This document shows, one piece after another, positions 33,801 to 49,319 of a DNA stretch of 64,000 nt. Origin of the DNA: Candidatus Brocadiia bacterium (GTDB lineage Bacteria > Planctomycetota > Brocadiia > SM23-32). Under the pieces are notes generated by a model. The model was not told the origin of the DNA. It did no database searches and saw nothing but the letters and a program-made list of their open reading frames with translations. The translations under genes were made by a program, and so were the position numbers. The stretch is taken from assembly GCA_046538485.1 (NCBI GenBank), contig JBKHIT010000011.1, positions 32,693 through 96,692 of the forward strand, read 5' to 3'. Positions within the stretch are counted from its first letter, which is position 1, and each line of letters begins with the position of its first letter.

Positions 33801-34451
33801 CTCGATTTTGAACCGTGAGAATACCAGGGCGCGTCCTTTTCCCACTTTGTAAGCTGTGGCGAAAGCTTTTTTGAAAGCGGCTTCTTCCCGGGGAAGTCTG
33901 TTGAAGTATTTCTCGGTACGCCCGGCCCTTCCGGTGAGACCAAGTCCCCCGGCGATGTCGTTTACCGGAGTTTCGATCTGCCGATCTTTTCGCAGCACAT
34001 TGCGTGGGGGCCTTCGCACAAAGAGGATGCCCGTACCGTCGGCAACGGTTGAGAGGACGCGGAACTTCGCTTCGTTCGACAGTTTGGGCCAGGGGGCTCG
34101 CCAGTGGTCCCAGCTCACGATCACATCCCATTTGCGCGATTCCAGCAGTTTGAGAGTTCTCTCGTTGTCGGACATGTGGTACCCATAGAGAGAATATTCG
34201 ATGTCCATGAAGGGGAAAGCACGAAGGAGTTCCATGGGTTGCCGCGTATTCTGACGGTAGCCGAGCTGATCCCCTTTGAGGATCAGGACGGAAATCTTGC
34301 CGCTGGAGTACTGCTGGCCCAGCCAGCGGGTGGTCGGAGTCCCGAGATTCCCCGGCTCCATGGTATATTCCTGGGCTTTCCAGTCCTGTGCGAGCAATCC
34401 GGGTGCCAGCAAGATGGCGGTCAGAACGACGCAAATGGAACGATATTTCAT
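30867..34451 (-). CDS. Large secreted beta-galactosidase-like protein (GH42-like catalytic and trimerisation regions)
   Basis: Signal peptide; YDEG, YRSWLKEFYG..LDALNREW..Y..W, VGFEG, IALYYS, LLILPF, FVKNGGTVLADLRPG, C-terminal DPAGKW. Confidence 0.65.
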   Translation of the reverse strand: MKYRSICVVLTAILLAPGLLAQDWKAQEYTMEPGNLGTPTTRWLGQQYSSGKISVLILKGDQLGYRQNTRQPMELLRAFPFMDIEYSLYGYHMSDNERTLKLLESRKWDVIVSWDHWRAPWPKLSNEAKFRVLSTVADGTGILFVRRPPRNVLRKDRQIETPVNDIAGGLGLTGRAGRTEKYFNRLPREEAAFKKAFATAYKVGKGRALVFSRFKIEDNSGAKLFRWDHSIDHQYMMAEMGRAILWAAQKEPRVKFVSTPPALRKLAWGKTKGQTGKWILDAGKNPLGLTIEWRVRDLKDHVLARDERKFEGAKDKITCQFTLPDLDAGRYYTDLLIKSARGGENYGYAGLHVPAPCEVELNQKQKGVEPDGKLAGTALFTLQEEQEIPKPALLLEVLDNHDRIVVRRRVDAEPGQKVPYAFSIDPHYPIQMRVRARVVAGKREAGSAWLTYHILRRRHDRFNMVLWGSWNGPYRHWGKLKLRETGVTSSLSGKSEVANINRTPTNFAYNWPVGEKKMRSPRPKKDPELGVPVMQPACWNEEEAFQKMLSAKDGVFESGTRTPVFVYNMYDEGPHSGMCLHPECLKAYRSWLKEFYGDELDALNREWESDYKSWDQVNVMKKGDNHEKAAREAGIYARWSDRKHFGEVNFCRRMIGGLTERARKYDPKALVGFEGSGGFGMDFDELISNSGFWCPYDGIRTEVVRSLKPEGFIHSFWIGYNKKGDRLIARAWRAVINDAPSIWWWMLAGRGRFHGWLAPNNEPYPENRRFLDEVIIPLRRGLGDLLMQLDQKHDGIALYYSVAASHAGELTEAAAFNSVKGAHGSILRLIEDCGYQWVYTTRKRTLEGDLKERGIKLLILPFIQTLGQKEVDTLRKFVKNGGTVLADLRPGVYSGHCRPLEHGPADALFGVRRTGEGKAVRIDGELQAKLKGKTISIRLNNNRADAQLTVDGGTAAGKMKGCPVFVANKIGDGRAILLNFHLTQYNAERLLSEGKAQREFFRQLADAIGLKPKLERNDGEGSELLRAETATWKGGNVTVYGLYRDGGKEGPARVVLPSEQWIFDLRRGKVGKTTTVDIPRLKPGYAEFLTTYPYDPGQPKVEPSRETVHGGETVTFRISMSGVPAREKGPFSFSTRLLNPEGEWVEVIPWSAQGRGGKARTSMRFAHNDPAGKWTLKAREVTTGRTAECVVIKK

Positions 34452-47437: not shown

Positions 47438-48046
47438 TCAGTTATACGGGTTTTTGGGAAGGATTATGCCGGCGCAAACAGCAGCCAGAAGTGCTTTGCA
47501 GACGTCCCATATGATAAACGGAAAAACTGCCTGAGGCATAACAACAGCCGGAGCCACTCCGGCGTAAAAAGCATAGTGAACAGCGCCAAAAAGATATATT
47601 ATTCCGACCGCTGGCACCATTAAAAAGGTCAAGGGTATCGGTTTTCGAAAACAGGGATATTTATCTGCGACAAAACCGATCAAGGCAGCCGCGGGGATAA
47701 ATCCCAGTAGATAACCGCCCGTCGGGCCTGCCAGCATCGCAAAACCGCCAGCGAGGCCGTTAAACCAGGGCAATCCAAAAGCGCCCGCGGTGACGTAGAA
47801 CGCCATACTCAAGGCCCCATAGCCTTGCCCCAAAAGAATCCCTGCCAGCAAAACTGCAAAGACCTGACCCGTTACCGGCACGGGCGTGCCCGGGACATGA
47901 AACCGAATCTGAGCCAACACTCCGGTCAGCAACGCAACGCCGACCGAAAGACCGAGACGAGCCGGAATTGACAGGGAATTTCGCCAATCAAACGCTTCTG
48001 ACCGCTTTTTGTCCCAGTAGTCCATAATATGCGTTGCGCTTGCCAT
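47438..48046 (-). CDS. bioY: Biotin transporter BioY
   Basis: PVPVTGQVFAVLLAG..LG, G..GLPWF, GPTGGYLLGF..AA, IYLFG, PFI..D..K; start 48046 or 48079. Confidence 0.93.
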   Translation of the reverse strand: MASATHIMDYWDKKRSEAFDWRNSLSIPARLGLSVGVALLTGVLAQIRFHVPGTPVPVTGQVFAVLLAGILLGQGYGALSMAFYVTAGAFGLPWFNGLAGGFAMLAGPTGGYLLGFIPAAALIGFVADKYPCFRKPIPLTFLMVPAVGIIYLFGAVHYAFYAGVAPAVVMPQAVFPFIIWDVCKALLAAVCAGIILPKNPYN

Positions 48047-48445
48047 CTCGTTCTTATCTCCAAACCTTGCGTTTGCCATCGGCCAATTTTAACACAGCTA
48101 AAGCATAAAGGATAGCGTCTGGTGGTTGTGAATTTCAAGAGTACAGTGGAGATTTTGCGCTTCAGGTCTTCTCAAGCGTCGGTAGACTTCAATTTGCGAA
48201 AGATTTCCCGCTCTTCCGAGAAGTTGTCGGGTGCATATCATTATGCTTGGTTAAGTAAAAATCCGGCGTTCCGGCCCGAACAGAACAGGAGAACCTCTGG
48301 ACAGTGGGTTCTGGCAATTTCCTTTTTCCATCGCGCTAAGCGATTTTTGCTAATAGGCTTACAATTATAGCAAGCAGCCCGCACGGTCAATTAATTGCGC
48401 CGCGATAGCGCTTTTCGCGAATTCTCGTCTTTGTTTTGCCCCCAC

Positions 48446-48635
48446 AAAAAAGCGGAGGCCTTCTTCGCAAGCCTCCGGCAAGACTTGCGAAAGAAGGCCA
48501 AATTCCCCCCGGCCGTCCCTCGGGCGGGGGAAACCCCTCTCCGCTATTTAATGAGACCACCTTTTAAAAGCGAGAAAGACCAGTTATGCGGTTTTCAGGT
48601 CTTACCCCAAACGATACTTAATTTGTCTCTGACAA
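48446..48635 (-). ncRNA. Candidate sigma54-dependent structured small RNA (~190 nt)
   Basis: No ATG; follows a -24/-12 promoter; 3' half folds into two GC-rich hairpins closed by AGCGGA/TCCGCT and ends in T6. Confidence 0.55.
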
Positions 48636-48645
48636 GTCGAAGAGA

Positions 48646-48661
48646 TGCAAACGGCACGCCA
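48646..48661 (-). promoter_or_regulatory. sigma54 (-24/-12) promoter
   Basis: Minus strand TGGCGTGCCGTTTGCA matches TGGCACG-N4-TTGCW at exact spacing. Confidence 0.7.
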
Positions 48662-48747
48662 GAAAAAGAAGTTTCCGCTGAGAATATGAAAAATTATATT
48701 AAGGACAGGCCTGGGGGATGCAACAAAGAGCAACGGGCCAAAAAAGA

Positions 48748-48764
48748 TGTCGCGTTATGATACA
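48748..48764. promoter_or_regulatory. Possible enhancer-binding-protein upstream activating sequence
   Basis: Imperfect palindrome TGTCGCG-TTA-TGATACA about 115-130 bp upstream of the predicted sigma54 start site, with an AT-rich stretch in between. Confidence 0.4.
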
Positions 48765-49319
48765 TGTTTCGGGTTTGTACGCTACCGGTTAAACAAATCT
48801 CGGGTTTTTTGCCAGGATCTTTCAAGCGCTAAGAGTGGCCCCGCCAGGGCGAAATTGGCTCTTTCGTTTTTTAAATCCCTGAGCACACACTATCCCAAAA
48901 ACCATCCTAACTTTGCTACGTAAAGCTTATTTGAACAAGATCTTATAATAATTAGTGTTTTAAATTCATGGCATGTTCGGGTTAGAGGTTTACAAACTGC
49001 ATTTGGAGGCCCGATTGCTTTATGATGCCGACAGTGCCGACAATGTGTTGGTAAGGCACCTCATCGTCACAACTCAGCAGCACCCGCCCTTTTTCGTTGA
49101 TTTCTGCGAGATAATGCAGTTTGGCCAACAGTGCTGAATTTTCTGGGACAGCTTACTCACGAAATAAGGATACCTCAGAATGTGGATTTCCGCCACAATT
49201 TTTTGCCGATATTTAAAGAAACTTCATCGCGATCGCATTTTTGGCTACCGGAATCAGGTACAAAAAAAGCCGACCACCTCGTGGTGGTCGGCGGAAAACA
49301 CATTAACAAGCCGATTTTA

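Follow-up and report, generated by a model that had tools for sequence, protein, structure and literature searches.

A non-coding region between an exbD remnant and bioY in a Candidatus Brocadiia bacterium: terminator module or small RNA gene?

Organization of the exbD2-bioY gap

The region under study lies on contig C7 of a 5.19-Mb genome assembly (143 contigs, 88% complete), within a stretch of 64,000 nt that we refer to as the window. Read along the minus strand, which is meant throughout unless stated otherwise, a TPR-exbB-exbD1-exbD2 cluster recognized with Pfam is followed by a terminator, an exbD remnant, an AT-richer spacer, a 17-mer, a -24/-12-like box, ∼190 nt of sequence, and finally bioY (47438-48079; Pfam BioY, 5.2e-33). 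The gap from the exbD2 stop (49320) to bioY measures ∼1.24 kb, and a strong terminator with a 10-bp stem and T7 (49269-49292; -20.8 kcal/mol) sits directly 3′ of exbD2. A preliminary description of this DNA had read 48446-48764 as a stand-alone gene for a structured small RNA under sigma-54 control. When checked against the sequence, every motif that it listed was found on the minus strand where it had been placed, and the spacer is indeed AT-richer (GC 0.42-0.48).

The gap holds no credible gene, as had been proposed. Its open frames have negative scores on our own codon-usage measure, among them a 121-aa plus-strand ORF over the element (-0.09 per codon) and a 57-aa minus-strand ORF (-0.37 per codon), and none of its 13 stop-to-stop frames yielded a Pfam family above cut-off, the top match being DUF3966 at 17.5 bits against a cut-off of 25. 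The 121-aa ORF had no homologue in a search of 5.8 billion clusters. ATG is likewise absent, as noted before, from the ∼190 nt that lead up to the T6 run (48451-48446). The composition of the region gave no sign of a foreign island.

Downstream, bioY begins 370-400 nt beyond T6 with an ATG at 48079 or 48046, and the possible sigma-70 promoter previously suggested for it was returned by our promoter scan as TTGAAA-N18-TATCCT at 48138-48109. Between the terminator and bioY we also read from the sequence a second sigma-70-like site, TTGACC-N15-TGcTATAAT with an extended -10 (48364-48390), which may be a bioY promoter that gives a long leader. The 104 nt downstream of this site are unstructured (z 0.28). 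The site is followed, too, by a putative frame of 26 aa and by a site weakly resembling a terminator (48287-48267).

One feature of the gap is absent from the preliminary description. At 48985-49128 lies the C-terminal remnant of a third exbD, 48 aa long, which matches the C terminus of ExbD2 by BLASTP (38% over 48 aa, E 2e-12). The relative G005 carries an intact exbB-exbD1-exbD2-exbD3 cluster, and in three relatives a converging gene directly follows the exbD cluster, with no similar element there. Two terminator scans found no other terminator on the minus strand between the stop of the remnant (48985) and 48453; a transcript crossing the remnant would therefore end at the hairpin domain described below.

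A compound terminator preceded by an unstructured 5′ half

The 3′ domain of the element (48446-48550, 105 nt) folds with a minimum free energy of -62.4 kcal/mol and a z-score of -5.18, and none of 200 shuffled sequences folded as well. All of the helices drawn earlier for this half are present: a closing helix AGCGGA/UCCGCU surrounds a GC-rich hairpin (TTCCCCC/GGGGGAA) and a ∼19-bp hairpin, and U6 (48451-48446) follows, so that the whole is Y-shaped. Both terminator scans returned it as an intrinsic terminator on the minus strand, the ∼19-bp stem standing directly before U6.

The 5′ half proposed for the RNA (48551-48636, 86 nt) fared differently. Its GAGAC/GTCTC and AGACC/GGTCT helices are present in the sequence as described, but the folding of this part is at chance level (z -0.27, with 74 of 200 shuffles folding as well), and it is effectively unstructured. 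The 201-nt stretch as a whole has a z-score of -4.14, with the excess stability coming from the 3′ part alone, and the 349 nt upstream of the unit are less folded than their shuffles (z +2.25). The 3′ domain is the only part of the region that is clearly beyond chance.

The -24/-12 box and other promoter-like sites

The -24/-12-like box TGGCGTGCCGTTTGCA (48646-48661) agrees with 10 of the 12 specified consensus positions, with its GG and GC 10 nt apart and with G and T at -22/-21. The box is thus present with the spacing that had been reported, but its frequency is that of chance and it scores below all local reference boxes. The window contains two occurrences of the pattern TGGC-N7-TTGCW where 1.18 are expected (35 of 100 shuffles have at least two), and the genome contains 103. 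The second occurrence of the pattern in the window, TGGCACCCGGATTGCT at 34393-34408 on the minus strand, has a better TGGCAC half. For a local standard, we built a sigma-54 matrix from 25 boxes: 16 that stand upstream of a C21-type RNA, an RNA family treated in the last section, in different genomes and found by position rather than by consensus, and nine others that stand before glnA, an ammonium transporter gene, groEL, a gltB-like gene and others. On this matrix TGGCGTGCCGTTTGCA scores 12.6 bits, and the lowest of the 25 training sites scores 14.8 bits; position -22, which is G in TGGCGTGCCGTTTGCA, is A in 25/25 local reference boxes.

Genome-wide counts gave the same picture. These rest on a gene map from a crude ORF and codon-score caller that misclassifies some genes, bioY being one that it dropped. 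Intergenic sites scoring at least as high as TGGCGTGCCGTTTGCA on the local matrix number 32, versus 29, 20, and 18 in wrong-spacing controls, and on the crude ORF-based map intergenic sites with exactly 10 of 12 positions number 46 at the correct spacing versus 54, 40, and 50 at +1, +2, and +3. A box followed by a terminator 50-320 nt downstream, with no coding sequence between, is found four times genome-wide (1, 3, 5, 4, and 3 times in five wrong-spacing controls). The TGGCRY-N5-TTGC class, by the crude map, is enriched between genes, where 15 of its 37 members fall versus about 20% of the genome. Another TGGCGT box, at C10:7360, lies 69 nt upstream of a response-regulator gene that adjoins an activator gene. 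Near-consensus boxes were also seen at C87:11594(-), C80:50325, C127:63843(-), and C2:15922(-), 83-107 nt upstream of genes whose products, judging their N termini by eye, resemble glutamine synthetase, an ammonium transporter, GroEL and a glutamate-synthase-like protein. For groEL to be preceded by a sigma-54 box would be out of the ordinary.

The genome does contain rpoN, as the preliminary description had supposed (a 498-aa open frame on C84, Sigma54_DBD 206 bits), and nine full-length sigma-54 activators (204-249 bits), none of which is encoded on contig C7. The proposed enhancer, the 17-mer TGTATCATAACGCGACA (48748-48764), is unique in the window and is found where it was placed. As a palindrome it is weak: only four of its seven arm positions pair, and it was not among the inverted repeats detected. 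Control by sigma-54 and an enhancer, the core of the earlier proposal, is not borne out by these results, with G at -22, a score below 25/25 references, wrong-spacing sites that are as frequent, a weak dyad, and no activator on the contig.

Sigma-70-like alternatives lie nearby. TTGCAT-N19-TATAAT (48693-48723), which we read from the sequence, has a perfect -10 at 48698-48693 and an over-long spacer, outside the 16-18 nt range of the promoter scan, and would start an RNA near 48686. The scan itself returned ATGCCA-N18-TATTAT at 48974-48945. In all, it found two promoter-like sites in the region, and shuffled sequences led us to expect 1.5. In the relative L071, TTGCAT-N16-TATAAT stands before a copy of the C21-type RNA.

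Conservation, copy number and strain variants

The window contains no Rfam match at gathering thresholds (Rfam 15), and the element is not a multi-copy repeat, its one match in the genome being the locus itself; both agree with the preliminary description. Rhizobiales-2, the best Rfam hit of the region, scored 24.8 bits against a cut-off of 40 and lies on the opposite (plus) strand, and we rejected it.

Searches for relatives of the element were negative. Blastn of the element found no homologue in 60 relatives, a set with no second genome of the genus, and a covariance model built from the single sequence (R1) had no match in 100 relatives. Among 400 genomes of the phylum, only matches of 22-39 nt at chance level appeared, in 11 of them, and scans of metagenomes gave nothing with BioY and nothing with the promoter-plus-5′-stem pattern. 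Conservation of promoter plus structure, on which the earlier proposal depended, was thus found in 0 of 30 family genomes. This is a weak test for a fast-evolving RNA, because this genome alone represents the genus in the set and identity among the family's BioY orthologues is itself only 38-58%. It is not a powerless one, since the same blastn in the same genomes recovered the C21-type RNA in 25 of the 30. At the bioY loci of 22 family genomes, two of which offer less than 70 nt of upstream sequence, no box of the scanned form lies within 1,100 nt upstream of bioY; three matches lie farther off, at 1,117-1,417 nt. An antisense blastn of the element against the genome for possible targets had as its best match 17 of 19 nt, which is at chance level.

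Close variants of the region do occur in DNA contigs from two studies, of microbial mats and of a salt lake (reads of four DNA runs). Among the differences listed for these strain contigs is a 4-nt insertion behind 48546 in X2 and X4, which lies in the linker immediately 5′ to the closing helix, spares the helices and would shift any reading frame, and a 1-nt deletion at 48439, beyond the U-tract. The listed differences, which seem to comprise fully supported ones only, include no substitution from 48223 to 48706, and we do not take this as a sign of constraint on the box or the RNA. X2 and X4, which come from a related strain, depart from the window sequence at 49152/49153. This divergence points to a longer exbD3 in the other strain than in the window; the truncation of exbD3 may be strain-specific or may be an assembly difference.

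Interpretation of the region

The region is non-coding and single-copy, it carries an exbD3 remnant, and its promoter statistics are those of chance. Its strong intrinsic terminator has no intact gene to serve. The reading that we prefer, with a probability of about 45%, is that of a lineage-restricted 3′-end or terminator module behind a decayed exbD3, with a sigma-54 box that is probably fortuitous. Minus-strand transcription would enter from the decayed exbD3 and the AT-rich spacer and would end at the Y-shaped double hairpin and U6, which would shield bioY from upstream transcription; no dedicated regulator would be made. On this view the -24/-12 match, which lies 12 nt before the start that was proposed, is most likely fortuitous, and an accumulating RNA would represent the protected 3′ terminus of that transcript, with an unstructured 5′ arm and a stable Y-domain. 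We read the Y-domain as the 3′-end module of a transcript from the remnant and spacer because no other terminator stands between 48985 and 48453, and the point at which X2 and X4 diverge fits a fuller exbD3 in that strain.

Several findings speak against this reading. exbD2 already has its own strong terminator (49292-49269), so that little read-through is expected unless a promoter lies in between, and a 3′ UTR of 530 nt would be long. The start predicted for the RNA (about 48635) immediately precedes the first possible helix, an arrangement shared by many small RNA genes, the TGGC and TTGCA cores of TGGCGTGCCGTTTGCA are both perfect, and sigma-54-driven small RNAs do exist in the lineage, as the C21-type RNA illustrates. 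Intrinsic (Rho-independent) terminators and small RNAs derived from 3′ UTRs have a GC-rich hairpin and a U-tract downstream of a gene; unlike these, the hairpin here is compound and Y-shaped and lies unusually far, 530 nt, past the stop of the exbD3 remnant.

A real small RNA of some origin is possible, at somewhat less than even odds, and the element is at best an unconfirmed, species-restricted candidate for one. Such an RNA might be young and arise from a sigma-70-type promoter (48723-48693 or 48974-48945) or by processing of the exbD3 3′ UTR, with the Y-domain protecting its 3′ end. The perfect TATAAT at 48698-48693, the ATGCCA-N18-TATTAT site listed by the scan, and the use of TTGCAT as a -35-like element before the L071 copy of the conserved C21-type RNA all point this way, as does the stretch free of terminators from the exbD3 stop to 48453. 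The strain insertion, too, counts in its favor: it enters the linker rather than a helix and would break any reading frame. Yet a promoter spacer of 19 nt is over-long, TATAAT turns up often in AT-rich spacers, promoter-like sites are hardly in excess (two versus 1.5 expected), conservation does not extend beyond near-identical strains, and antisense matches stay at chance level, so we consider this origin unlikely.

The original proposal, a stand-alone ∼190-nt gene driven from the box at 48661-48646 by sigma-54 and an upstream enhancer-binding protein, whose RNA would act in trans through its unstructured 5′ arm, appears doubtful. It draws on the correct GG-N10-GC spacing and the perfect TGGC and TTGCA cores, on the presence of rpoN (206 bits) and nine full-length activators (204-249 bits), and on a unit that lacks an ORF and any match in Rfam and has a strong terminator; the intergenic enrichment of the TGGCRY-N5-TTGC class (15/37 versus about 20% of the genome, by the crude map) and the order-wide C21-type RNA, sigma-54-driven in 15 of 17 relatives' copies examined, count in its favor as well. 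These points are set against the G at -22, a score under 25/25 references with as many sites at wrong spacing, a contig without an activator gene, a weak enhancer dyad, 5′ structure at chance level, and the lack of conservation in any genome searched. A young, species-restricted small RNA under sigma-54 and an enhancer-binding protein, in an uncultured mat and salt-lake bacterium without detectable Hfq, is in our judgment equally doubtful. If it were real, it would belong to a wider layer of sigma-54 small RNAs together with the order-wide C21-type RNA and the C81 hairpin RNA described below, and it would show new sigma-54 small RNA genes arising in the debris of a decaying gene, here exbD3. 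Lastly, a long regulatory bioY leader, in which transcription would stop at the hairpin unless a signal permits read-through, is very improbable: the orientation is the same and the terminator does lie between upstream promoters and bioY, but 370-400 nt separate it from the start codon, two promoter-like sites lie within that stretch (48390-48364 and 48138-48109), no Rfam riboswitch or leader matches, and the bioY loci of 22 family genomes (two with less than 70 nt to scan) have no box within 1,100 nt upstream.

Small RNAs that depend on sigma-54 are an established class, with Qrr, GlmY/GlmZ and the Desulfovibrio ncRNAs as examples. Qrr RNAs are conserved, often multi-copy and Hfq-dependent, whereas the C7 element is single-copy and unconserved and no Hfq was found in this 88%-complete genome. 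GlmY and GlmZ are structured, terminator-ended RNAs of about 150-200 nt with sigma-54 promoters, overlapping sigma-70 promoters and defined activator sites, and the element has no sequence or Rfam similarity to them. GlmY and GlmZ are small RNAs of Enterobacteriaceae (PMC4152352, PMC7073468), and the Qrr RNAs of Vibrio are tied to LuxO and sigma-54 (PMC10162802); as proposed, the element would resemble the latter, a small RNA acting in trans whose sigma-54 promoter is served by an NtrC-type activator. The sigma-54 regulome of Desulfovibrio vulgaris Hildenborough includes four non-coding RNAs, three of the four listed beside their own activator (downstream of DVU0653, downstream of DVU0679, and upstream of DVU2357 in the DVU2359 regulon) (Kazakov et al. 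2015, PMC4641369). With these the element would share its proposed layout, in which a -24/-12 promoter drives a short non-coding unit and needs an enhancer-binding protein (PMC4641369); unlike them, it has no activator on its contig and a box at chance level.

Taken alone, the C7 element matters little: if real, it is one more unconserved sigma-54 small RNA candidate, and if not, it is an ordinary terminator. Chance readily yields a 10-of-12 match to -24/-12 together with a terminator, about three times per 5-Mb genome here.

A conserved sigma-54-associated RNA family in the same genome

The C21-type RNA served as our positive control. At C21:484-626 (L036:458-626), a perfect 12/12 box, TGGCACGGGGGTTGCA, precedes ∼140 nt with three hairpins and a terminator (z -6.69). 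A covariance model (R2) finds six copies in the genome, the others at C20:81911-82053, C66:61190-61325(-), C72:1416-1560(-), C115:31435-31573, and C128:8106-8216. With the same model the RNA was found in 25 of 30 family genomes, in the one genome of the sister family (1/1), and in 0 of 100 genomes of other families of the class. Among 17 copies examined in relatives, 15 have a -24/-12 box of the GGCA[CT] type that ends about 10-13 nt before the first conserved base; the other two, and the copies on C20 and C115 of the genome under study, have sigma-70-like boxes instead. RNAalifold placed 32 pairs on an alignment of 18 sequences, and compensatory changes occur in 17 of these pairs. The 5′ GCUGCCUGUCC and a hairpin loop CUCCCACC are nearly invariant, and a second hairpin and the terminator follow. 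The RNA had no Rfam match at E values up to 1, and a wider contig scan for the motif of the family returned one unrelated record only.

The C7 element is not a member of this family. On the minus strand, R2 aligns only terminator fragments of at most 4.4 bits, and the element is absent from the whole-genome matches of the model; a plus-strand match at 16.6 bits contains many non-standard pairs and was rejected on its alignment. The two share a genome and a proposed layout of sigma-54 box, short transcribed unit (∼140 nt in the C21-type RNA), and terminator. They differ in that the C21-type RNA has a 12/12 box, presence in 25/30 family genomes, and compensatory changes in 17/32 pairs, and it is by far the stronger sigma-54 small RNA. 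As a well-supported, uncatalogued family with a conserved sigma-54 promoter, it offers a much better entry into RNA regulation in a poorly studied lineage. Hfq (PF17209) had no match in the 88%-complete genome; if it is truly absent, the small RNAs of this lineage work without it.

A further unit was found at C81:53640-53741 (L037:741-842), where TGGCACAATTGTTGCA (11 of 12 positions) stands before one long hairpin and U6, ∼70 nt in all (z -3.43). The unit contains no ORF, lies 270 nt from the end of the contig, and had no homologue in 60 relatives. It is a second orphan sigma-54 small RNA candidate, with a box better than that of the C7 element.

Two kinds of repeat were seen in passing. One, of at least 300 nt, is common to C44:111636-111980, C119:51992-52340, and C84:86740-87068(-) and includes GGGCACGCT[AG]AATGCA, with a conserved stretch upstream and sequence rich in hairpins downstream. 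An identical 15-mer, TGGCGGCGCCGTTGC, is present at three intergenic positions, C23:34068, C26:37244(-), and C134:21892, and is probably part of another repeat family.
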